Notes: a model not told the origin generated them from the letters alone. A stretch of DNA of 64,000 nt from an uncultured Treponemataceae bacterium (GCA_964576835.1 CAZNXK010000002.1:13789-77788), one strand, 5' to 3'. Shown: positions 13,964-43,758, numbered from the stretch's first letter. A program made the numbers and translations.

Positions 13964-15142
13964 ATGAAAACAGTGCTGATAGTCGATGCGAACGAAGACG
14001 ATCGAAAGACCGCCATGGCCCTGTTGGCGGTCAGATACGAAGTCCGATCGTGCGCAACAGTAGCGGATGCCATCGAGCTGGCAAGGGGAAGAAAGCCGGA
14101 CGCCCTGGTCATAGACATCGCCTGCAGCCGCATCGACGGGAACTACGATCCGCTTGGAGTCGCGGCCCTCATCGAGCCCAGGGCCGGGATCATCTGCACC
14201 GCCTCGATGAGCACCGCCATAGATTATGCCAGACACCGCGGAGTCTCCGGCTATGTCGAGAAACCGTACCGCGCGGAACCCCTGTATGCGGCGGTGCGTC
14301 TGGCTTCGGCAGAATCGGCCGCCGGCCTGGAGGCCATATGGTCCCATAAATACGGATCATGCCTGCATGCCGGGAGCTCCAGGGGAGGCGGACTCATCGG
14401 CGACTGCGAAGCGCTCAAGGAGGTGGCCCGGCGGATAGCCCTGTACGCCGCGCACGACGCGCCGGTGCTGATACTCGGGGAGAGCGGCACCGGCAAGGAA
14501 CTGGCCGCCGCCGCGATACACCAGGCGTCCAGACGGTCGTCGGGCAGGTTCCTCCCGGTGGACTGCGCCGCCATACCGGAGACGCTCGCGGAAAGCCACT
14601 TGTTCGGCACTGTGAAAGGCGCATTCACCGGAGCGCTCGATTCGAAGGGAGTATTCGAGTCGGCCTGCGGCGGAACGGTATTCCTCGACGAGATAGGGGA
14701 GCTGTCGATGACGGTGCAGGCGAAATTCCTCCGGACGGTGGAGACCGGCACAGGCGCACGCGTCGGGGCAGTCGATCCCGTCGACTACGACATCCGCATC
14801 CTCTCGGCGACCAACGCGCCGCTTTTCGGAGACAGCACGCATTTCCGGCCGGAACTCGTCCACAGGATTAATACGCTCGTGCTCAGGATGCCTGCGCTGA
14901 GGGACCACAAGGAAGACATCCCGATACTCGCCGAGTCGTTCATCGAGGAATTCAGCCCTGGCAAACGCATAACGAGGAGTGCCATGTCCAAGCTGGCAGC
15001 GTGGGATTGGCCGGGAAATGTCAGGGAACTCAGGAACGCCGTCTGCCGCGCCACCGTCATGTCGGGCGGGAACCACGAGATCCGGCCCGTCGACATAGAA
15101 TTCGACGGCGCCGAGGCTCCCTGGCAAGCATCGCTGTTCTGA
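13964..15142 (+). CDS. Sigma-54-dependent response regulator (receiver + AAA+), lacking a C-terminal HTH DNA-binding domain
   Basis: The receiver has MKTVLIVDANEDD...DALVIDI...YVEKPY. The AAA+ domain has Walker A GESGTGKE, the sigma-54 contact loop GAFTGA, Walker B GGTVFLDEIGEL and WPGNVRELRNAV. The protein ends ~30 aa after GNVREL (…IEFDGAEAPWQASLF*), with no Fis-type HTH. The ATG at 13964 is chosen inside track ORF 13703..15142. Confidence 0.9.
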   Translation: MKTVLIVDANEDDRKTAMALLAVRYEVRSCATVADAIELARGRKPDALVIDIACSRIDGNYDPLGVAALIEPRAGIICTASMSTAIDYARHRGVSGYVEKPYRAEPLYAAVRLASAESAAGLEAIWSHKYGSCLHAGSSRGGGLIGDCEALKEVARRIALYAAHDAPVLILGESGTGKELAAAAIHQASRRSSGRFLPVDCAAIPETLAESHLFGTVKGAFTGALDSKGVFESACGGTVFLDEIGELSMTVQAKFLRTVETGTGARVGAVDPVDYDIRILSATNAPLFGDSTHFRPELVHRINTLVLRMPALRDHKEDIPILAESFIEEFSPGKRITRSAMSKLAAWDWPGNVRELRNAVCRATVMSGGNHEIRPVDIEFDGAEAPWQASLF

Positions 15143-17375: not shown

Positions 17376-17472
17376 TTGCTTACTGTCCGAATGGGACTTT
17401 AAAAAGCGACCGGAATAGCCGAAAATATCGTCGAATGCCTGCAGAAATGCGTCTTGTGGTTTCACTATCGAT

Positions 17473-17501
17473 TTGACAAGGCATTGACGACAGCCTATGA
17501 T
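17473..17501 (+). promoter_or_regulatory. Candidate sigma-70-type promoter of the STAS-YbjN-PspA operon
   Basis: TTGACA (17473-17478), 17-nt spacer, TATGAT (17496-17501). A second overlapping pair, TTGACG-17-TAGAAT, follows. It lies ~55 nt upstream of the ATG at 17559, which has a GGAAGAGGAG RBS. Confidence 0.45.
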
Positions 17502-17558
17502 CGTCTTAGAATCGACGGCTGGCTATAGAAAAGTGCGCTCGAATGGAAGAGGAGTACC

Positions 17559-18110
17559 ATGGCAAATAATGATATCGTTCCTGGCTTCGACGACGAAAAG
17601 GACGATAGCCTGAAAATCCGGCTCCAAAAAATCGATCACGTTGACAACTGCCTGGCTCTTTTCCTGACAGGCTATATCGATACGTACAATTCGAATTTCT
17701 TCCAGAAACGTGTCGGGAAAGCCATAGACGGCGGTTTTTCACGCCTCATCTTCAATTGCGGTGGCCTCAACTACGTATCGTCTACCGGAATAGGCTCCTT
17801 CACGGCATTCCTTAAGGCGGTCAAGCCACGAGGCGGAGACATCGTCTTGCTCGAGATACAGCCAAAGGTCTACGAGGTATTCCAGCTCCTCGGGTTCTCG
17901 CAGTTCTTCAACATCAAGGACAATCTCGAAGAAGCCACGGCGTATTTCCACCAGGGTTCGCAGGTCAGTTCCCAGACCGTTTTCCCCAAGATTTTCTCGT
18001 GTCCGATATGCACCAAGAAGCTGAAAGCAGCCAAGCCCGGACGTTTCCGCTGCTCGGAGTGCAAGACCATCCTGGCAATAGACAACTCGGGGCAGGTTTT
18101 CCTGGGGTGA
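17559..18110 (+). CDS. STAS-domain protein (anti-sigma-factor-antagonist-like) with C-terminal zinc ribbon
   Basis: 183 aa with a SpoIIAA-like core (LIFNCGGLNYVSSTGIGSFTAFLKAVKPRGGDIVLLEIQPKVYEVFQLLGF). The C-terminus is CPICTKK...FRCSECKT, a CxxC...CxxC pattern. Confidence 0.85.
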   Translation: MANNDIVPGFDDEKDDSLKIRLQKIDHVDNCLALFLTGYIDTYNSNFFQKRVGKAIDGGFSRLIFNCGGLNYVSSTGIGSFTAFLKAVKPRGGDIVLLEIQPKVYEVFQLLGFSQFFNIKDNLEEATAYFHQGSQVSSQTVFPKIFSCPICTKKLKAAKPGRFRCSECKTILAIDNSGQVFLG

Positions 18111-18159
18111 TCCGGGCAGCGCACCACGCAGAGCTCCAATTCGCGACGAGGAGGAACCA

Positions 18160-18543
18160 ATGGCGGGTATGACCAAAATCGAGTCGTATCTCATGGATCT
18201 GGACATCTCCTATCAGGAAGTATCGCCGAGCGCTTTCTACATCGACGACGATGCCAAGGGCCTCCCGGGCATCACCGTGACGCTCGACGAGCCCATAGTG
18301 ATCGTACGGGCCAAAGTCATGGTACTCCCTTCCGCAAGGCGAAACGAGCTTTTCGAGAAGCTGCTCCGCCTCAACGGTACCGACATGGTGCACGGCGCGT
18401 ACGGGCTTGACGGCAACGACATCGTCCTCATCGATACGCTTGAATACGACACGATGGACAAGCCGGAATTCGAAGCGGCCCTCGATTCGATAGGGCTGGC
18501 CCTGTCCAGACATTACGACGTCCTCGGCGCGTTCCGGGGCTGA
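18160..18543 (+). CDS. YbjN / T3SS-chaperone-like small acidic protein (putative)
   Basis: 127 aa with a GAGGAGG RBS. The assignment rests on the pattern IESYLMDLDISYQEV...ELFEKLLRLNGTDMVHGAYGLDGNDIVLIDTLEYD, which resembles YbjN/CesT-fold proteins. This is by eye only. Confidence 0.6.
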   Translation: MAGMTKIESYLMDLDISYQEVSPSAFYIDDDAKGLPGITVTLDEPIVIVRAKVMVLPSARRNELFEKLLRLNGTDMVHGAYGLDGNDIVLIDTLEYDTMDKPEFEAALDSIGLALSRHYDVLGAFRG

Positions 18544-18563
18544 TCCACAGGAGGCTTACGACC

Positions 18564-19271
18564 ATGGGAGTATTCGACAGGCTGAAGACGGTTCTATCGT
18601 CAAATATCAACGATATGATCAACAAGGCCGAAAACCCCGAGAAGATGCTCAACCAGCTGGTCATCGACATGAACCAGCAGATGATCGATTCGAAGAAGGC
18701 CGTCGCCATGGCGATAGCCGACGAGAAGAAGCTGGAACGGGATCTCGTTGAGCAGAAGCGGCTTTCAGAGGACTGGGAACGCAAGGCGGTGATCGCCGTC
18801 AAGGCAGCCCGGGACGACCTGGCCAAGGAAGCGTTGCTGCGGAAGCAGGAAGCCGAGACGTACTACCTCCAGCTCAAGCCGCAATGGGAGGGCCAGAAAG
18901 CCTCGGTCGAGAAACTCAAGGACACCCTCAGGCAGCTCCAGAACAAAATCGACGAAGCGTCCCGCAAGAAAAACATACTGTTGGCTCGGGCAAAACGGGC
19001 GGAGGCCCAGCAGAAAATCCAGTCGACGCTGGCGAGCGTGTCGGGCAACACCAGCGCCTTTGATACTTTCGACCGCATGGCAAAGAAGGTCGATGAACTC
19101 GAAGCCCGGGCCGACGCGCAGGCCGAACTCGCGGACCTGTCCCAGTCTTCGTCGCTCGACAAGGAATTCGCCAAGCTCGAATCATCCGGCGCCGGAGCCG
19201 ACATGCTTCTTGAAGACCTCAAGCGCAAGATGATAGGCGACGGATCCACGGAACCGGCTGGCCAGGCGTAG
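18564..19271 (+). CDS. pspA: PspA/IM30 family protein (phage shock protein A-like)
   Basis: 235 aa. The canonical N-terminus is MGVFDRLKTVLSSNINDMINKAENPEKMLNQLVIDMNQQM, followed by long coiled-coil heptads. An AGGAGG RBS is present. Confidence 0.9.
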   Translation: MGVFDRLKTVLSSNINDMINKAENPEKMLNQLVIDMNQQMIDSKKAVAMAIADEKKLERDLVEQKRLSEDWERKAVIAVKAARDDLAKEALLRKQEAETYYLQLKPQWEGQKASVEKLKDTLRQLQNKIDEASRKKNILLARAKRAEAQQKIQSTLASVSGNTSAFDTFDRMAKKVDELEARADAQAELADLSQSSSLDKEFAKLESSGAGADMLLEDLKRKMIGDGSTEPAGQA

Positions 19272-19274
19272 GCA

Positions 19275-19877
19275 ATGCGCCTCCTCTTCGTTGGTGACGA
19301 AGAGGAATACGACAAGGCGGCAACAAGCAGGGAGGACGGATCGCCGTTCTCCCTTTTCTTTTGCGAACGCCCTCCGTCCGGTTCCGGCCGTGACTTCGAC
19401 GCTACCATCGTACCCGCCCTCCGGTTCCTGTCATGGCCCGAGGATCTGGCCCCAGGCATGGTCATAGCCAGCGGCCCTGCCGGCATGGCGTGGGAATGCT
19501 TCGATTCAGGCTGTGATGACTACATCAGGGAGCCATGGACTGAGGCTGAACTACAGGCCCGGGTCCTGGCTCACTCTGGAAGCCGGCTCGAGCTTGAACG
19601 GGGACTGCTGATCGTCGACAAGGGACGACTGTACGGCCCCCGCGGTTCGGCACGTCTTTCCGGCTCAATGCGCGGAATGCTGGTCCTGTTGTCAGGAAAC
19701 AGGGGCCATTCAGTGCCCAGGGCTGCCATCGCCGCGGTAGCCGAACCGGTTCCGGCGGGCGGCAGGGCCATAGACATGCGCATAGCCAGGCTGCGCTCGC
19801 TGCTGCGCGAGGTTGGCGCCCCGGAAATGGCTGACAGGCTCCGTTGCGAACATGGCGGATACCGATTTATTAGTTGA
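19275..19877 (+). CDS. OmpR/PhoB-type winged-helix protein with degenerate (pseudo-)receiver domain
   Basis: 200 aa. The C-terminus is Trans_reg_C-like (LSGSMRGMLVLLSGNRGHSVPRAAI...IDMRIARLRSLL...GGYRF). The N-terminus has receiver-like ends (MRLLFVGDEEE, CDDYIREPWTEAELQARV), but the expected phospho-acceptor position reads FDATIVPAL. It starts 3 nt after the pspA stop. Confidence 0.7.
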   Translation: MRLLFVGDEEEYDKAATSREDGSPFSLFFCERPPSGSGRDFDATIVPALRFLSWPEDLAPGMVIASGPAGMAWECFDSGCDDYIREPWTEAELQARVLAHSGSRLELERGLLIVDKGRLYGPRGSARLSGSMRGMLVLLSGNRGHSVPRAAIAAVAEPVPAGGRAIDMRIARLRSLLREVGAPEMADRLRCEHGGYRFIS

Positions 19878-20219
19878 CATTCCAGACTTTACTGGTTCTT
19901 GTCCAAGACTGTGGATAACCTGTTCATTGTTTGTGACGACTTTGCACTGAACGAAAAAGATCGTATAAAAAAAGGCACATATCTGTATACTTTTGGCACA
20001 AATTTCGACAACTCATTTTATTTCTTTTTGATATAAGTATTTGCATTTTCGAATATGGAATTATTTTAGAACATGGCTCACCGAAGCTCCAAAAGCTCAA
20101 AAAACGACAGTGACGGAATCAACATGCTCATGTGGACAACTTGTGCAAAAAGAAATGAATGACGAGAGGTTATGCCATCTGGCTTGTCAAGTGCCATATC
20201 GCGTGCTACTGTTTGACCG
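19878..20219. promoter_or_regulatory. AT-rich 342-bp intergenic island with DnaA-box-like 9-mers and a partial sigma-54 -24 element
   Basis: TGTGGATAA (19910-19918) is the perfect complement of TTATCCACA. TGTGGACAA (20131-20139) is the complement of TTGTCCACA. Weaker boxes are TTGTCCAAG (19899-19907) and TTGTGCAAA (20141-20149). A very AT-rich run spans ~20013-20075. TGGCAC-N5-TCGA lies at 19994-20008. Confidence 0.4.
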
Positions 20220-22592: not shown

Positions 22593-23873
22593 CTATTCGT
22601 CGAGCCGCTCGATCCTTGCGCCGAGAACCTGGAGTCGCTCGGCGATGCGCTCGTAACCTCGTTCTATCTGGTAGACGTTCTTGATGGTGCTGACGCCTTC
22701 CGCGCACAGAGCCGCGATCACGAGGGCCATGCCAGCCCTGACGTCGGGCGACGTCAGCGAGTCACCCTGCAGCCTGGCCGGGCCAGAAACCACGGCACGG
22801 TGCGGATCGCACAGCACTATCCGCGCGCCCATTCCGATGAGCTTGTCCACCCAGAACATCCTCGATTCGAACATCTTCTCGTGGATGAGTATCGTGCCTT
22901 CTACCTGCGTCGCGACGACGGTCATGATGGAGGTAAGGTCAGGAGGGAAGCCGGGCCAGGGGGCGTCATCTATCTTCGGGATCTGGCCACCGAGGTCCGA
23001 GACGACGCGCATCGTCTGGCCGGGATGCACCGACAGGTCGCTTCCTTCCAGGCTCCAGGCTATGCCGAGCCGGCCGAAGGCGAGCTTCATCATTCGGAGG
23101 TCCGCGGGAATTACGCCTTCCACCACCAGATCGCCTCGCGTCACGGCGGCAAGTCCTATGAACGAGCCTATCTCCATGTAATCGGGACCTATCGTGAAAT
23201 CCGCCCCATGGAGCGACTGTGCTCCTTCTACCGCCAGGATATTGGAGCCAATGCCGGAAATGCCGGCTCCCATGGCGTTGAGCAGCCTGCAGACGTCCTG
23301 GACGTGCGGCTCGCTCGCAGCGTTGCCTATGACGGTACGGCCTTCCGCAATCGACGCGGCCATCACCGCGTTCTCCGTAGCCGTCACCGACGCCTCGTCG
23401 AGGAAAATATCGGAGCCCTTGAGCTTGTTGGCCGTGAACTGGAAGGCGCCATCGACCTCGATGCGCGCGCCTAACTCCTCGAGCGCCAGGAAATGGGTGT
23501 CAAGGCGTCGGCGGCCTATCACGTCGCCACCGGGCGGAGGCAGCGTCACCTTGCCGAACCTGGCCAGGAGCGGCCCTGCGAACAATATCGAAGCGCGGAC
23601 CTTGGCCGCGAGCCCGGCGGGTATGTCCGCCCCCTTGACGCCTGAGCCGTCGATCCTCCAGGCATTCCGGTCCAGCCTCTCGACGCCAGCGCCCAGGGCG
23701 CGGCATATGTCGAGCATCACGAGGACATCCTCGATCTCGGGAATGTTCCGCAGGGTAACCGGCTCTTCCGAAAGGAGGGAAGCCGCGATGCACGGCAATG
23801 CGGCATTCTTGTTGCCGCTCGCGCGGATCCTGCCCTTGAGCGGATGACCACCTTCGATACGGTATTGGTACAT
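22593..23873 (-). CDS. murA: UDP-N-acetylglucosamine 1-carboxyvinyltransferase
   Basis: 426 aa, with the N-terminus GGHPLKGRIRASGNKNAALPCIAASLL. The length and EPSP-synthase-fold repeats are typical of MurA. Confidence 0.92.
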   Translation of the reverse strand: MYQYRIEGGHPLKGRIRASGNKNAALPCIAASLLSEEPVTLRNIPEIEDVLVMLDICRALGAGVERLDRNAWRIDGSGVKGADIPAGLAAKVRASILFAGPLLARFGKVTLPPPGGDVIGRRRLDTHFLALEELGARIEVDGAFQFTANKLKGSDIFLDEASVTATENAVMAASIAEGRTVIGNAASEPHVQDVCRLLNAMGAGISGIGSNILAVEGAQSLHGADFTIGPDYMEIGSFIGLAAVTRGDLVVEGVIPADLRMMKLAFGRLGIAWSLEGSDLSVHPGQTMRVVSDLGGQIPKIDDAPWPGFPPDLTSIMTVVATQVEGTILIHEKMFESRMFWVDKLIGMGARIVLCDPHRAVVSGPARLQGDSLTSPDVRAGMALVIAALCAEGVSTIKNVYQIERGYERIAERLQVLGARIERLDE

Positions 23874-24026
23874 GATGGCATCCTATCGGGGCCGTCGATT
23901 GTCGTCAACGCCGTACGCGATGCGGCCGCCTGGTCGAAGCCGTTTGACCCGGAACTCATTGGGCACTACCTTTGTCGGACGGGCATGTGCACCGGCGCGC
24001 GCGGCCCCAAGCCACAAGGAGGCTCC

Positions 24027-25790
24027 ATGTCGATACAGAGAGTGAAACCGGTTCCAAGTGATATCGAGATCGCACAGGCCGCGACAATACGCCCGATCGT
24101 CCAGGTAGCCGCGAAGTATGGAATAGAAGAAGACTGCATCGATCACTTCGGCAAGTACAAAGCCAAGGTACGCCTCGAGTTCCTTAAAAAAAACGAAAAC
24201 CTGCCAAAACGGGCAAAATACATCGATGTCACGGCAATTACCCCGACTCCGCTGGGCGAGGGCAAGACGACCACGACCGTGGGACTGACCCAGGGCCTTG
24301 GCCGCTTGGGCAAACTAGCCATAGCCGCCATCCGCCAGCCGTCCATGGGACCAACCTTCGGCATCAAGGGCGGCGCCGCGGGCGGCGGCTACAGCCAGAT
24401 CGTCCCGATGGAGGATTTCAACTTGCACCTTACCGGCGACATTCATGCCGTCGCCGCCGCGCACAACCTCTGCGCGGCCGGACTCGACGCCAGGATGTAC
24501 CATGAAGGCCGCTGGTCTGATTCCTTCTTCGAGAAACAGGGAATGAAAAAACTCGACATCGATCCGTACCAGGTGCTGTGGCGCCGCGTCGTCGACATGA
24601 ACGACAGGCCGCTCCGCAACATCGTTCTTGGAGTCGGAGGCGTCGACAACGGCCCACTCCGCCAGAGCGGCTTCGACATAGCAGTAGCCAGCGAAGTGAT
24701 GGCCATCCTGGCGCTCGCCAAGGACCTTGGCGATCTCCGGGCGCGCATGGGAAAGATAATCCTCGCGATAGACAGGCAGGGCAAGGCGGTAACCACCGAG
24801 GACCTGGGCATTGCCGGGGCGATGACCATCCTGCTCAAGGACGCCATCAAGCCGAACATCCTGCAGACGCTGGAGGAACAGCTGGCATTCGTCCATGCCG
24901 GTCCGTTCGCCAACATAGCGCACGGAAACTCGTCGGTTGTTGCCGACATCATCGCTACCAAGATAGGCGATTACGTCGTCACCGAAAGCGGCTTCGGCGC
25001 CGACATGGGTTTCGAGAAATTCGTCGACATCAAGTGCCGGACGAGCGGCCTCTTCCCCGACGCGGCTGTCATCGTCGTTACGGTCAGGGCGCTCAAGATG
25101 CACGGCGGAGGACCGAAGGTATCGCCTGGCAAGCCGCTCGCGAAAGCGTACGTCGAAGAGAACGTCGAATTGGTCAAGCAAGGGCTGCCGAACATGATCG
25201 CCCACCTCGGCATAGTCAGGAAATTCGGGGTACCGTCGGTCGTCGCGATAAACGCCTTCCCGACGGATACCGAAGCCGAATGGGGCGTCATCAAGGAAGC
25301 CGCCATCAAGGCAGGCGCGACCGCTGCCGTCGTCACCAGGAACTGGGCAGAGGGCGGAGACGGCGCGGTAGAGCTTGCCGAAGCCGTCGTAAAGGCTGCC
25401 GAGCGGCCGAGCAGCGTCGAGCCCTTTTATCCGCTTGACCTGTCCATCAAGGAAAAGATCGAGAGAATCGCGCGCGAGGTCTACGGAGCGGAACACGTCG
25501 CGTACTCCGCCGAAGCCGACAAGGCGATAGACAAATTCGGTGAACTCGGGTTCGAACGCCTGCCGATATGCATGGCCAAGACGCAATACTCGCTGTCGCA
25601 CGATCCGGCGGTCAAGGGAGCGCCGAAGGGCTTCATCTTCCCGGTCAACGACGTGCGCATCGCGGCGGGCGCCGGCTTCATCTACCCGCTGTCGGGGGAA
25701 ATCAACACCATGCCAGGCCTGTCAAGCAAGCCGGGGTACATGGGCATGGACATAGACACCGACACCGGCCGCATCATCGGCTTGTCCTGA
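24027..25790 (+). CDS. fhs: Formate--tetrahydrofolate ligase
   Basis: Has MSIQRVKPVPSDIEIAQAA...ITPTPLGEGKTTTTVGL (P-loop) and PICMAKTQYSLSHD. AAGGAGG lies 5 nt upstream of the ATG at 24027, so the track ORF start at 23844 is rejected. Confidence 0.92.
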   Translation: MSIQRVKPVPSDIEIAQAATIRPIVQVAAKYGIEEDCIDHFGKYKAKVRLEFLKKNENLPKRAKYIDVTAITPTPLGEGKTTTTVGLTQGLGRLGKLAIAAIRQPSMGPTFGIKGGAAGGGYSQIVPMEDFNLHLTGDIHAVAAAHNLCAAGLDARMYHEGRWSDSFFEKQGMKKLDIDPYQVLWRRVVDMNDRPLRNIVLGVGGVDNGPLRQSGFDIAVASEVMAILALAKDLGDLRARMGKIILAIDRQGKAVTTEDLGIAGAMTILLKDAIKPNILQTLEEQLAFVHAGPFANIAHGNSSVVADIIATKIGDYVVTESGFGADMGFEKFVDIKCRTSGLFPDAAVIVVTVRALKMHGGGPKVSPGKPLAKAYVEENVELVKQGLPNMIAHLGIVRKFGVPSVVAINAFPTDTEAEWGVIKEAAIKAGATAAVVTRNWAEGGDGAVELAEAVVKAAERPSSVEPFYPLDLSIKEKIERIAREVYGAEHVAYSAEADKAIDKFGELGFERLPICMAKTQYSLSHDPAVKGAPKGFIFPVNDVRIAAGAGFIYPLSGEINTMPGLSSKPGYMGMDIDTDTGRIIGLS

Positions 25791-38501: not shown

Positions 38502-39515
38502 CTACAGCCGCGCCGCAGTCCAGGCAAGGGTCCTGCCGGCGGCGAGCGGCGTGACGCCGTCCAGCGCTGCCGGCACGGTCCATGGCGTGCGCGACAAGGC
38601 GAGCCGCCCCTGGTTGTACGGCAGGCCGTAGAACCGCGCGCCGTTCTCCGACACGAAGGCCTCGAGGCGGTCGAGCCGCCCGGCGTCCTCGAAGGCGGCG
38701 GCGAGCAGGCTCATGGCGACGGGCGCTGAATAGCAGCCAGCGGCGCCGCCTGCCTTGGCCGCGGGCGGATGCGGTGCGCTGTCGCTGCCGAAGAAGAAGC
38801 GGGGCGAGCCCGCGGCCAGGACAAGCGCCTCGCGGTCCCTGGCGCTTTTCAGCACAGGCCTGCAGAAATACGATGGATCCAGCCTGTCACCGATCATGTC
38901 GTCGATGGTGTACGACAGATGATGGGCGCTGATGGTCGCGGCGACCCGTTCGGGCCAACCCAGGACCGCGTCCACCGCGGTTGCCGTCGACAGGTGTTCT
39001 ACCACTATCCTGATCCCTGGATGACTCGCAAGCAACCTGTCCACGGTCGGCAGGAAGGCCGTCTCGCGCTCCAGCGCCGGAACCAGCGGATCCTCGGCAT
39101 GCACCGACAGCACGAGGCCCGCAGCCTCCATCGCGACGAGTTCGACGGCGACGCTGCCCGGGTCGGGAATGCCGTCCGAGGAGTTCGTCGTCGCACCGGC
39201 CGGATAGTACTTGCCCGCCTTGGCTCCCGCCGCCGCGCAGGCGAATACGGCGTCGCGCCCCATGCCGGGGACCAGCTTGAAGCTCATCACCGGCTCGGCA
39301 ACCAGGCCCGACGCGGCCACGGCCGCGACCAGCGCCCGTCGGTAGTCGTCCATCGAGGCAGCTGTGGCAAGCGGCGGAACGACGTTGGGCATCGCGAGGA
39401 AGCGGCCGAAATGCGCTGCTGTCCTCGCCACGTAGGCCGCCATGGCCGGTCCCTGGCGCATGTGGACATGGAAATCGTCTGGAAGGCGTATCACGAGATC
39501 AGCCACCGAAGGCAA
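38502..39515 (-). CDS. pyrC: Dihydroorotase (E. coli-type, class II)
   Basis: LPDDFHVHMRQG, AMPNVVPP and KYYPAGATTNSSDGI align with E. coli PyrC (RPDDWHLHLRDG, VMPNLAPP, KLYPANATTNSSHGV). Confidence 0.88.
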   Translation of the reverse strand: MPSVADLVIRLPDDFHVHMRQGPAMAAYVARTAAHFGRFLAMPNVVPPLATAASMDDYRRALVAAVAASGLVAEPVMSFKLVPGMGRDAVFACAAAGAKAGKYYPAGATTNSSDGIPDPGSVAVELVAMEAAGLVLSVHAEDPLVPALERETAFLPTVDRLLASHPGIRIVVEHLSTATAVDAVLGWPERVAATISAHHLSYTIDDMIGDRLDPSYFCRPVLKSARDREALVLAAGSPRFFFGSDSAPHPPAAKAGGAAGCYSAPVAMSLLAAAFEDAGRLDRLEAFVSENGARFYGLPYNQGRLALSRTPWTVPAALDGVTPLAAGRTLAWTAARL

Positions 39516-41121
39516 ACTCCACGATGGAAACGTCGTCGTCGAACAGGGCTTTGGACGACAGTCCGCGCACCGAGTCGACGATGCGTTTTATCGGCGACAG
39601 GCAGGCTGGCGATACCAGGCACTCGCGGTGATGCGCCTCGAGGAGAGTCATGAATTCCTCCCAGGCCAGTATGGTTCCCGCCTTGGTCCTGACCTCGAAG
39701 AGTCCATCGCTGAAAAGGTACAGGTTGGAATCGGGATCGATCAGCTGATCGAATTCGCCGAAGCTCGCCGCCTCGTCGACGCCTATCACCGGTCCGTCGC
39801 CAGCAAGCTCGATGACCGAGCCGCCTGCCCCGACAAGGATGGCGGGCGGGCTTCCTGCGCTCGCGTAGCGGAGCTGCCTCGTGGACGAGTCGTACACGCC
39901 GTACCATATCGTGAAGAACATGTTGTTCTGGTCCTCGATGCGGAACGACCTGTTGAGCTTCGAGAGCACCGACGACGGCGACGAGTAGTCGACCCCGCCG
40001 AGCGACAGGCTGCGCAGCATGTTCATGATGGTCACGGACAGCAGCGCGGCCTGGATTCCGTGCCCGCTGACGTCGAGAAGGTACAGCGCAAGTCGCTTGT
40101 CGTCGATGGCGTGGTAGAAGAAGCAATCTCCCCCGAGGCTCAGGGATGGTATGAATTCCCAATCGGCGGCCACGCCCTGCCAGCGGAGCCGCTTGGGCAG
40201 TAGGCTCCTGACATACTCTGCGGCATCGCGCAGTTCGCCGGCCAGGCGTTGCTGGGTCTCGATGAGACGGCGGAGCGCCTCGTCATTCTCGCGCTTGTAC
40301 GCCTTCTTTTCGAGGAGGCTGTCGATGCGGGCCTTGAGTATCAGGGGATTGAAGTCCCGCGGCATGTAATCCTCGGCGCCGAGCTCGAGGCAACGGGCCA
40401 TGGAAGCGGGGTCGTCGAGCGCTGAAACCACGATGGTCGACATGTCGCGGAGCCTCGGGTCGTCATGGATGGCCTCGAGGAACTGGTAGCCGTTCATGCC
40501 GGGCATCATCACGTCGAGGACGACGATGTCGAACGGCGCCTCGGACAGTATCGAGAAGGCCTCGTTGCCGTTGGCCGCCTGGCAGACGACGTGTCCCTGC
40601 CGTTCGAGATGCCTCGAAAGAATCTCCCGGTTGAACGGGTCGTCGTCCACGACGAGAATGCGCCCGGAGACGCGGCGGACTTCCGGCTGGCTGGCGGCAC
40701 GGCTCAAGGAAGACGGATCGGTATCGATGGTCGAGAAGGCGTCGGCGCCTTCGAACAGGTCTGAAAGCGCGTTTGCCGCTTCGTGGACCTTGTGGATGTC
40801 CTCGAGCGCCTTGGTGCCGGCGGGCGATACGCGCCTTGCCGACTGGACAAGCGAGACGAGTTCATAGATGTGCTCGTAGACCTGCATGCGGAGCGCATTG
40901 GATGGTTCCGAACCGTCGAGGATCGAGGCCAGGTACGCCAGCACCGGTTGCCGGAGGGCTATCGCGGCCGCGCCTATGGCCCTGAAGCTTGCGCTGAGTT
41001 CCGGTGCCGTCAGCGTGCCCGAATCGCCGGCCAGCAACTCCCCGAACCCGACGACATGATTGAGTATGGTCCTCGCCTCGTGGCGGAACCGTGCCCGCAC
41101 GTCGTCGTCTTTTCCGTTCAT
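39499..41121 (-). CDS. Response regulator fused to a PP2C/SpoIIE-type phosphatase, with an N-terminal HisKA/HPt-like helical domain
   Basis: 540 aa. The N-terminus FRHEARTILNHVVGFGELL is H-box-like. The receiver is RILVVDDDPFNRE...DIVVLDVMMPGMNG. The PP2C part has GGDCFFYHAIDDKRLALYLLDVSGHGIQAA and LYLFSDGL. Its 3' end overlaps the pyrC start by 17 nt. Confidence 0.88.
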   Translation of the reverse strand: MNGKDDDVRARFRHEARTILNHVVGFGELLAGDSGTLTAPELSASFRAIGAAAIALRQPVLAYLASILDGSEPSNALRMQVYEHIYELVSLVQSARRVSPAGTKALEDIHKVHEAANALSDLFEGADAFSTIDTDPSSLSRAASQPEVRRVSGRILVVDDDPFNREILSRHLERQGHVVCQAANGNEAFSILSEAPFDIVVLDVMMPGMNGYQFLEAIHDDPRLRDMSTIVVSALDDPASMARCLELGAEDYMPRDFNPLILKARIDSLLEKKAYKRENDEALRRLIETQQRLAGELRDAAEYVRSLLPKRLRWQGVAADWEFIPSLSLGGDCFFYHAIDDKRLALYLLDVSGHGIQAALLSVTIMNMLRSLSLGGVDYSSPSSVLSKLNRSFRIEDQNNMFFTIWYGVYDSSTRQLRYASAGSPPAILVGAGGSVIELAGDGPVIGVDEAASFGEFDQLIDPDSNLYLFSDGLFEVRTKAGTILAWEEFMTLLEAHHRECLVSPACLSPIKRIVDSVRGLSSKALFDDDVSIVEFAFGG

Positions 41122-42336: not shown

Positions 42337-43758
42337 ATGGGGATAGCCGTACCTGCCAGTTTCGATATTCCGACGCTCAGCCTGGCCCTGACCATAGTGC
42401 ACCTTGGCAGTGCCTTGTTCGCCTGCCTGCTATTCGCGTATCACCGCTCGTTTCCCGGCGCCAGGCTCTGGATCCTCGGCCAGTTCCTGCTGACGACAGG
42501 CGCGCTGGGCGTCACGATGCAGTCGCTCGGGCTGCCATATTCGACGCTGGGAGTATCGAACGTCGCCCTGCTGGCCAGCGTCGTTGTCATGGGCAACGCG
42601 ATCTGGTTGTTCCGCTTCGGTGGCGGATTCCCTTTCTGGATGTATGCGGTGATACCCCTGGGCATCATCGCATGGTATGCCCGTGCCGGGACCACGACAG
42701 GATTTCAGGTCTTGGCCTTTTCAGGTAGCCTTTGTGTGCTCTCAGGCTCGGTCGCGGCGATGCTCCTGGCCTGGCGCAACGTTCCGTTCGCCAGCGTTTA
42801 CAGGATAGCGTCCATTCCTTTCATTATAACATCGCTTGTAGGGTTCTCCAGAGCGACAGGCGCGGTTCTGGGAAGGCTGCCGCTGACCATATCGGAAACC
42901 GGGGCGATGGGCGCGGTCGAATACATGGTCGGGCTCATTGTCGCTTTCTTCAACCTGTTCGGATACTTCCTGCTGTCGTCGGCGAAGGCCGGGCAGGAAC
43001 TCGAAGCCCGGGAAGCGGAAATCAGGCAGCACAACGACGAGCTGGTCGAGACGGTCGCAACCAAGGACGCGCTGATCGCCGTCATTGGGCACGACCTGCG
43101 TGCACCGGCCTGGAGCGCCGCGCACTATGTCCGCAGCCACCTCGTCGATTTCGACGGCGACCTTAACTCCAAGCGCGAGAAAATCGAAACCCTCGCCGAA
43201 GGCCTCGAAAGAATCTCGGGGCTGCTCGATTCGTTGCTGGAATGGGCTCTCTGCGCCTCCGGGCGGATGAAACTGGAGTCCAGCCCCATCTCGGCAGGAG
43301 AACTGATAGCGGAAGCGGCAACGGATCTCGGGTCGGTGGCCGCCGTCAAACGCGTATCGATCGAAGCGCCGACAGGCGATGGCATCATCGCGGGGGACAG
43401 GCGCGCCTTGGCGACCGTGTTCAGGAACCTCCTTTCCAACGCGGTCAAATATTCGAAGGAAGGTTCGTCGGTACGGACGGTGATTGAACAGAAATGCGAG
43501 CCACACGATGGCCAGCGCCTTACCGTCGTCGTCGAGGACGATGGTGTCGGTATGAAGCCGGAGCAACTGGCCGCGTTGTTCATGCCGGGGAGAACCATCC
43601 TCACGCTCGGTACTGCCGATGAGCAGGGCAAGGGATTCGGCCTGGCCATAAGCAAGCTGTTCGTCGAGGCCATGGGTGGAACGATGCGTGTGGAGAGCCA
43701 CTTGGGTCAGGGCAGCCGGTTTGTGCTTGATTTTCCCGTTTCCGGCTCCAAGGAATGA
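42337..43758 (+). CDS. Sensor histidine kinase with polytopic membrane N-terminal domain
   Basis: 473 aa with about 6-7 TM helices. It has a coiled coil, the H-box LIAVIGHDLRAPA, the N-box FRNLLSNAVKYS, and G-boxes VEDDGVGM and GFGLAISK. No response regulator is adjacent. Confidence 0.88.
   Translation: MGIAVPASFDIPTLSLALTIVHLGSALFACLLFAYHRSFPGARLWILGQFLLTTGALGVTMQSLGLPYSTLGVSNVALLASVVVMGNAIWLFRFGGGFPFWMYAVIPLGIIAWYARAGTTTGFQVLAFSGSLCVLSGSVAAMLLAWRNVPFASVYRIASIPFIITSLVGFSRATGAVLGRLPLTISETGAMGAVEYMVGLIVAFFNLFGYFLLSSAKAGQELEAREAEIRQHNDELVETVATKDALIAVIGHDLRAPAWSAAHYVRSHLVDFDGDLNSKREKIETLAEGLERISGLLDSLLEWALCASGRMKLESSPISAGELIAEAATDLGSVAAVKRVSIEAPTGDGIIAGDRRALATVFRNLLSNAVKYSKEGSSVRTVIEQKCEPHDGQRLTVVVEDDGVGMKPEQLAALFMPGRTILTLGTADEQGKGFGLAISKLFVEAMGGTMRVESHLGQGSRFVLDFPVSGSKE

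Follow-up and report, generated by a model that had tools for sequence, protein, structure and literature searches.

How might a PspA protein be controlled when none of its usual partners is encoded beside it? The question is raised by four co-directional genes in a 64,000-nucleotide (nt) stretch of DNA from an uncultured Treponemataceae bacterium (GCA_964576835.1, CAZNXK010000002.1:13789-77788; the whole stretch is called the window below). Gene 1 encodes a STAS domain with a zinc ribbon, gene 2 a small protein of CesT/Tir- and YbjN-like chaperone fold, gene 3 PspA/IM30, and gene 4 an OmpR/PhoB-family regulator that appears to lack the phospho-acceptor aspartate. Outside proteobacteria, firmicutes and actinobacteria, little is known of phage shock protein (PSP) systems. 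We find that the four genes are a genuine operon, inherited across the class Spirochaetia, and we put the chances at about even that they form a lineage-specific PSP module under control that would be independent of phosphotransfer. In that case, the cluster would define the form of PSP system used across Spirochaetia.

The original prediction, made from the sequence alone, had read the four genes as one transcript, with gaps of 49, 20 and 3 nt behind a TTGACA-17-TATGAT promoter, and both the open reading frame (ORF) call and the promoter scan confirmed this layout (Table 1). No internal promoter was detected within the cluster by sequence scan, and upstream of gene 1 the motif (T)TTGACA(A)-17-TAnnAT is present in nearly all of 82 loci, so that the genes look like a single tightly packed unit under a conserved promoter. 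In the window's clade, a second TTGAC and a second -10 element (TAGAAT or TACAAT) are also conserved. Gene 3 is as canonical a PspA as had been claimed: PspA_IM30 (PF04012) matches with E = 1.5e-52 (178.8 bits against a cut-off of 33.9) and spans profile positions 1-216 of 220. The N-terminus MGVFDRLKTVLSSNINDMINKAENPEKML resembles the helix alpha0 usual in PspA proteins, and the NCBIfam models for PspA and LiaH also match, though neither reaches its equivalog cut-off (LiaH with 80 bits against 380). An identical copy of this protein is encoded on a groundwater-metagenome contig, and the window itself is from a spirochaete of groundwater. Gene 2, expected to be small, acidic and chaperone-like, has a computed pI of 4.37 and matches CesT_Tir_1 (PF22550; E = 6e-28) and YbjN (E = 5e-6). 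The usual Psp and Lia partners are absent, also as predicted: no PspB/C/D/F Pfam family was found in the operon or the called neighbours, nor any LiaI/LiaF, Toastrack, LiaS kinase, LiaR or PspM/N partner among the neighbours examined, and a sigma-54 promoter (TGGCAC-N5-TTGCA-like) is seen in only 3 of 82 upstream regions, compared with 1 of 82 on the opposite strand. PspF-type control was considered and set aside, because the sigma-54 scan was negative and the activator nearby is a receiver-AAA+ protein without helix-turn-helix, 2.4 kb upstream with three genes between.

Is the arrangement shared by relatives? A scan for gene 1 with one genome per species returned at least 513 confirmed stretches; the 80 best gene 1 loci are all labelled as spirochaetes or as unclassified bacteria, and the species-representative genomes closest to the window are those of uncultured Spirochaetes and Treponemataceae. 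Profiles made from the four proteins were used to score gene order in 84 non-redundant loci. The full order 1-2-3-4 is kept in 54 of them, the order 1-3-4, without the CesT-like gene, in 11 (including Spirochaeta thermophila), and the order 1-2-3, without gene 4, in 10 (including S. cellobiosiphila; two lie at contig ends, leaving about eight true cases), while seven loci carry only genes 1 and 4 and two are incomplete at contig ends. Median gaps across loci are 46, 16.5 and 14 nt, and where genes 1 and 4 are left alone the gap between them goes down to 4 nt. The CesT-PspA pair is present in 64 of the 75 PspA-containing loci, and all of the 276 CesT_Tir_1 relatives of gene 2 that were retrieved appear tied to the cluster wherever their context was examined. 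Two CesT homologues with 52% identity to gene 2 (loci L091 and L092) lie in the same four-gene cluster amid other flanking genes, which suggests that the cluster moves as a unit. The conserved gene order that the original prediction had called for, together with the promoter, thus recurs in dozens of species-level genomes, beyond what chance would give.

We propose the following scenario. PspA would protect the membrane as the effector of the module, with the CesT-like protein as a chaperone that either maintains PspA in soluble form or delivers it. The aspartate-less regulator would bind DNA without His-Asp phosphotransfer, and protein contacts together with dosage would determine how active it is; dosage, in the window's clade, would be limited by a terminator-like hairpin in the regulator's own 5' coding region, and whether transcription reads through this hairpin may hinge on translational coupling to pspA. 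The STAS-ribbon protein would be a switch, governed either by the state of a conserved serine or by the zinc site, and would bind a partner from the operon or perhaps a highly conserved partner encoded elsewhere. All of this presupposes protein-protein contacts, regulator targets and an inducing signal that we infer for the module.

Table 1. Positions of the features discussed, counted from the first letter of the window unless another locus is named.
Feature	Position	Strand	Remarks
Gene 1, STAS + zinc ribbon	17559-18110	+	183 aa ORF; STAS ~residues 19-132, C-terminal CPxC..CxxC zinc ribbon ~144-182
Gene 2, CesT/Tir- and YbjN-like chaperone-fold protein	18160-18543	+	127 aa ORF
Gene 3, PspA/IM30	18564-19271	+	235 aa ORF
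Gene 4, OmpR/PhoB-family regulator, predicted aspartate-less	19275-19877	+	200 aa ORF; degenerate receiver ~residues 1-101, winged helix ~105-198
Promoter P1, TTGACA-17-TATGAT	17473..17501	+	sigma-70-type, 11/12 consensus positions
Promoter P2, TTGACG-17-TAGAAT	17484..17512	+	10/12 positions; 11 nt downstream of P1, overlapping it
Candidate sigma-28 (FliA)-like element, cTTTAAAAA ... GCCGAAAAT	17397..17426	+	TAAA, 14 nt, then GCCGAAAA
Intrinsic-terminator-like hairpin	19329..19364	+	11-bp GC-rich stem, then TTTTCTTTT (U tract); 55-90 nt inside gene 4
AT-rich spacer after gene 4	19878-20219
Box 1, TGTGGATAACCTGT	19910..19923	+	flanking element in the spacer; perfect DnaA-box 9-mer, also TGTG-N7-TGTG
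Box 2, TGTGGACAACTTGT	20131..20144	+	221 nt after box 1, ~40 nt upstream of the next gene's promoter
Promoter-like site TTGTCA-17-TACTGT	20184..20212	+	conserved in relatives; 7 nt before ATG 20220
Sigma-54 activator	13964-15142	+	392 residues
murA	22593-23873	-
Formate-tetrahydrofolate ligase, longest ORF	23844-25790	+	648 residues; overlaps murA start
Receiver-SpoIIE (PP2C) phosphatase	39499-41121	-	~20 kb from the operon
HATPase_c protein	42337-43758	+	473 residues, HATPase_c domain only
Distant STAS-ribbon member	L093 5001-5552
Distant STAS-ribbon member	L094 5001-5549

Gene 1 had been described as a STAS domain fused to a CxxC...CxxC ribbon, and both parts were recovered. Pfam STAS matches with E = 6e-22 and NCBIfam assigns an anti-sigma factor antagonist; the AlphaFold2 (AF2) model resembles SpoIIAA and RsbV (TM ~0.75, Foldseek), the STAS part aligns best with SpoIIAA, RsbV and TM1442, and the sequence matches in PDB are TM1442 and SpoIIAA. 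In the model a separate beta-ribbon follows the STAS domain, and the four cysteines C148, C151, C165 and C168 are invariant in relatives, though all zinc-ribbon Pfam models stay below threshold. The first 18 residues are acidic and highly conserved. S75, which is likewise invariant, lies at the start of helix alpha3 and aligns with the phospho-serine of TM1442 (MDSAG) and of SpoIIAA (MDSSG). The suggestion that the signal passes through protein-protein switching rather than phosphotransfer therefore stands only in part: it holds for His-Asp transfer, but not for serine phosphorylation, which may still carry a signal since S75 is retained. We note that proteins of about 180 residues with STAS and ribbon make up a wider family; among 1.84 billion cluster representatives, 181 clusters match gene 1 at E <= 1e-30, many of them of about 180 residues and with the ribbon covered.

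The conservation of gene 1 calls for separate consideration. Identity to the window protein is 79-98% in the 84 loci for gene 1 (median 83%, minimum 79%), 68-88% (about 72) for MurA in five loci, and at the median 69% for PspA, 53% for the CesT-like protein, 45% for the SDR protein encoded upstream and 33% for gene 4. It extends over the full length of gene 1, acidic tail and ribbon included. Because the 80 genome loci were picked as the top matches to gene 1, the apparent conservation is inflated. This sampling raises the median; it leaves untouched the comparison for three species that can be named, S. thermophila, G. caldarium and S. cellobiosiphila, all at about 82%. For a protein of 183 residues, 80% or more between Spirochaeta thermophila, Gracilinema and Treponema-like lineages exceeds MurA in the same loci and points to an important, unstudied switch in spirochaete physiology.

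The inflation by sampling is one of several points that weigh against the module as we propose it. Gene 1 identity is about 82% alike in complete loci, in those without CesT, in those without gene 4 and in those without both CesT and PspA, and the 84-locus comparison revealed no gene 1 residues specific to any of these neighbour-content groups; this independence from the neighbours suggests that the main partner of gene 1 is probably encoded outside the operon, and gene 1 may act in a pathway other than PSP. Two distant STAS-ribbon members, 43-54% identical, stand alone without PspA, one after a PAS histidine kinase and the other adjoining a YcaO/nitroreductase cluster. There is no RsbW-type kinase or PP2C phosphatase in the operon, and no RsbW/SpoIIAB-type kinase, PP2C phosphatase or target sigma factor within +/-10 kb examined in relatives. 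We identified no operator for gene 4. A TTGAC direct repeat was tried for this role and provisionally set aside: its presence does not track gene 4 (Fisher p = 0.28), and in 29 loci its second copy lies 11 nt further downstream and has a conserved -10 element of its own, so that it reads as a tandem promoter. Finally, at least 10 flanking genes (among them those for the sigma-54 activator, SpoU, SDR and MurA) are also collinear in many of these genomes, which makes gene order alone weaker evidence of a functional link.

These points lead to the alternative that survives best, namely that the four genes are co-transcribed but functionally separate. Gene 1 would then be a general, near-essential regulator of the partner-switching kind, an anti-anti-sigma factor whose target, for example FlgM/sigma-28 or an RsbW-type kinase, would be an anti-sigma factor encoded at an unlinked site, and the CesT-PspA dyad and the orphan regulator would be passengers on a strong promoter. 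We regard this as possible but somewhat unlikely. The indifference of gene 1 to its neighbours, its conservation above MurA and the phospho-serine that it has kept would all fit, as would the stand-alone relatives, the seven loci without PspA and CesT and the roughly eight without gene 4; the tight packing with no internal promoter found would not, and the retrieved gene 2 relatives appear cluster-bound. The pairing of genes 1 and 4, moreover, outlasts the loss of PspA, with hardly any space left between the two. The presence of a receiver-PP2C phosphatase in the window and of a sigma-28-like -10 box upstream of gene 1 in 46 of 82 loci could be added in favour of separate functions, and there is a precedent in P. 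aeruginosa, where the STAS protein PA3347 binds FlgM, a link to sigma-28 (PMC8256260).

The sigma-28-like box deserves some detail. The strand-specific motif GCCGAWA(A)T resembles the sigma-28 (FliA) -10 box GCCGATAA; the 46 upstream regions just mentioned carry GCCGAWA on the forward strand, compared with 4 of 82 that have it on the reverse strand (shuffles: mean 1.6, maximum 6), and 41 of 43 distinct copies have a T 20 nt upstream. Judged by its sequence, the element may be a sigma-28-like promoter. Its position relative to the sigma-70 promoter varies, mostly upstream but within the 5' leader in the Gracilinema/Treponema group, which makes it look like a promoter in its own right. Elsewhere in the window the extended motif has no further intergenic copy, and the sigma-28 label is thus not corroborated.

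Phosphatases of the receiver-SpoIIE (PP2C) type act on STAS proteins in other systems. The one in the window is separated by a cation-efflux gene from the HATPase_c protein of Table 1, and nothing ties either the phosphatase or the HATPase_c protein to gene 1.

A bolder version of our proposal can be formulated. Let us suppose that the STAS-ribbon protein directly gates the aspartate-less regulator, a STAS-to-pseudo-receiver switch replacing His-Asp transfer, that PspA and CesT act as a membrane-damage sensor titrating one of the two, and that the STAS protein also couples the state of the envelope to a core function such as the sigma-28 motility regulon. Such coupling, if true, would explain both the sigma-28-like box and the conservation above MurA. 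We consider this full chain doubtful, and would lend it little credence for now.

What, then, is gene 4? The original prediction had named it an OmpR-type winged helix with a receiver that reads FDATIVPAL where the acceptor aspartate is expected. Of the Pfam matches anticipated for the operon, PspA_IM30, STAS and YbjN were obtained, whereas for gene 4 Trans_reg_C stayed below threshold (E = 0.069; 13.7 against 26.2 bits) and Response_reg did not match. The winged helix is nevertheless borne out by more sensitive comparisons: the profile of a 24-member gene 4 family matches OmpR/PhoB regulators in PDB (3q9s, E = 3e-10; 1p2f, E = 5e-9) from helix alpha4 through the winged helix, hhalign aligns residues 55-200 with E. 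coli PhoB at 97% probability, and PF00486 is present in several homologues. The AF2 model (pLDDT 80) has a shortened (beta-alpha)5 receiver, helix alpha2 missing, followed by a winged helix; its best structural matches are KdpE, PrrA, DrrB, CosR and HP1043 and the effector domains of PhoB (TM ~0.7), ChxR and GlnR. FDATIVPAL spans residues 41-49, strand beta3 of the model ends, on its C-terminal side, with P47, and the spacing from D42 to P47 equals that from D48 to D53 in PhoB. None of 73 homologues has Asp at the acceptor position, where Pro (77%), Ser or Ala stands instead, and the position of the conserved Lys is Glu or Asp (E86 in the window, paired by hhalign with K105 of PhoB, as S66 is with T83). 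The N-terminal half of the receiver is not alignable to PhoB by sequence, so the assignment of the acceptor site rests on the model and on motif spacing. On this footing, we take gene 4 to be an OmpR/PhoB-family regulator whose receiver, as modelled, could not be phosphorylated at the usual site.

One might still imagine gene 4 as an ordinary response regulator, phosphorylated by an unlinked histidine kinase at a non-canonical or mis-aligned aspartate. The acidic N-terminal cluster (D8-E11) and D42 of the window protein, the Glu at position 49 in about a quarter of the homologues and the unalignable half of the receiver leave room for this idea; with no Asp at positions 46-48 in any of the 73 homologues, Glu in place of the conserved Lys, mostly Tyr at the Thr/Ser position in the wider family, no Pfam receiver match and no histidine kinase gene in or adjoining the cluster at any locus examined, we find it highly improbable.

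The dosage part of our scenario concerns the hairpin near the start of gene 4. In the window it folds with a z-score of -3.1. In 24 of 72 loci a terminator-like hairpin with U tract is placed at 73-83 nt from where gene 4 starts; six control windows contain such an element in 0-1 of 72 loci, and the region immediately behind the gene 4 stop codon in 0 of 70. The stems vary in sequence, with compensatory changes in 11 of 12 consensus pairs. We infer that, for the gene 1-3 transcript of the window's clade, the hairpin may act as the chief terminator or attenuator, in which case gene 4 would be expressed by read-through past it. A terminator within the coding sequence of a regulator would be an uncommon way of setting the ratio of effector to regulator. 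No known RNA family reaches its gathering score anywhere in the window; a match to ctRNA was discarded, being below threshold (26.9 against 50 bits) and merely reflecting the terminator-like hairpin.

That the adjacency of the four genes is inherited synteny only, without shared transcript or function, draws on the collinear flanks but is hardly credible, given that the genes stay together where the flanks differ (L091, L092), that the gaps are of 10-50 nt, and that the sole conserved promoter lies upstream of gene 1 and the sole conserved terminator-like element after gene 3, inside gene 4.

The surroundings of the operon offer a few further elements. The AT-rich spacer after gene 4 holds two direct copies of TGTGGATAA(C/G)(C/T)TGT, separated by about 221-246 nt and each containing a DnaA-box 9-mer that is perfect or nearly so. 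This pair of boxes directly follows the last gene of the operon in 66 of 84 loci, those without gene 4 included (it is seen at the same position in L004, L007, L009, L072, L077 and others), almost never occurs elsewhere or on the other strand, and encloses further conserved blocks, e.g. GAAGCTCCAAAAGCTCAAAAA. The 11-bp period of TGTG-N7-TGTG is typical of tandem winged-helix sites. The pair might serve as a promoter regulated by DnaA, as a site that titrates DnaA, or as an operator for some other regulator. A replication origin in the spacer was considered and rejected, as there are only two boxes, in direct orientation, the GC skew shows no inversion, and the G. caldarium copy lies about 0.26 Mb into its record. 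The promoter-like site at 20184 marks the end of the four-gene unit in the window's clade; being only 7 nt from the ATG, it suggests a leaderless transcript for the next two genes, which encode a 228-residue membrane protein and a 558-residue LptF/LptG-like protein and follow the operon in almost every locus. Upstream, the sigma-54 activator consists of a weak receiver, AAA+ and lid, ending right after the lid with no C-terminal helix-turn-helix, and keeps its place 2-3 kb from the operon in S. thermophila, G. caldarium and others. The formate-tetrahydrofolate ligase is called at 587 residues in relatives, and its true start is probably an internal Met (MSIQRVKP...). The window contains no tRNA genes and no credible PADLOC defence-system match, a lone LmuB match (E = 0.007) being dismissed as chance.

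Lastly, the operon may be set beside the systems already described. Like E. coli PspF-PspABC(DE), it combines a PspA effector with a dedicated transcription factor at the same locus, on which PspA could feed back; PspA reportedly regulates PspF negatively (PMC3128695). Unlike the E. coli system, the operon lacks a sigma-54 promoter and PspB/C/D, and it includes no AAA+ activator of the PspF type. Mycobacterial ClgR-PspA-PspM-PspN and Bacillus LiaIH-LiaFSR likewise are lineage-specific PSP variants with a regulator not of the sigma-54 kind beside pspA or liaH, but here the regulator is of OmpR/PhoB type and appears to lack the acceptor aspartate, with no kinase and no membrane partner detected. 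As to gene 4, HP1043 of H. pylori and ChxR of Chlamydia are phosphorylation-independent OmpR-family regulators, full-length proteins of receiver-like domain and winged helix without acceptor chemistry or cognate kinase, and both turn up among the matches of gene 4 by fold and sequence, HP1043 as 2hqr and ChxR through its DNA-binding domain (2m1b). Gene 4 differs from both in that identity is only about 20%, the receiver is shortened, the gene begins 3 nt after pspA and its mRNA contains the terminator-like hairpin. Gene 1, with its single-domain STAS fold and phosphorylatable serine, recalls the SpoIIAA/RsbV modules, including P. aeruginosa PA3347-FlgM, but carries a fused four-cysteine C-terminal ribbon and a conserved acidic N-terminal tail, has no RsbW-type kinase, PP2C phosphatase or sigma-factor gene adjacent, and is about 80% or more conserved across a bacterial class.

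A further comparison is with the CesT/Tir-PspA dyads published by Ravi and co-workers (mSystems 2024, PMC11237479), e.g. E. coli yjfI-yjfJ, in which, as here (with a 20-nt gap), a small chaperone-like gene lies immediately upstream of the PspA gene and function is deduced from genomic context only. The published dyads accompany band-7/flotillin, AAA+ ATPase, YqiJ/YuaF, spermine-synthase or ATP-grasp genes, with three larger operon types (band-7/flotillin with AAA+, spermine-synthase 7TM, and ATP-grasp/polyamine), and ClgR-PspA is another precedent to be found there (PMC11237479). None of these companion domains is present in the neighbourhood of the operon in the window or in the related loci; the partners here are instead the STAS-ribbon protein and the winged-helix regulator. 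STAS and OmpR are not mentioned in the text of that paper, and STAS and Trans_reg_C are absent from the one supplement consulted; literature searches on STAS with PspA, STAS with zinc ribbon and spirochaete PspA returned nothing on the four-gene arrangement. The original prediction had not recognised the arrangement as a described one, and this must be narrowed: the pairing of CesT/YbjN-like protein with PspA is known, whereas the STAS-ribbon protein and the apparently aspartate-less regulator as partners are undescribed as far as the searchable literature goes. A STAS-zinc-ribbon protein and a phosphorylation-independent OmpR-type regulator would thus extend the list of PspA partners.

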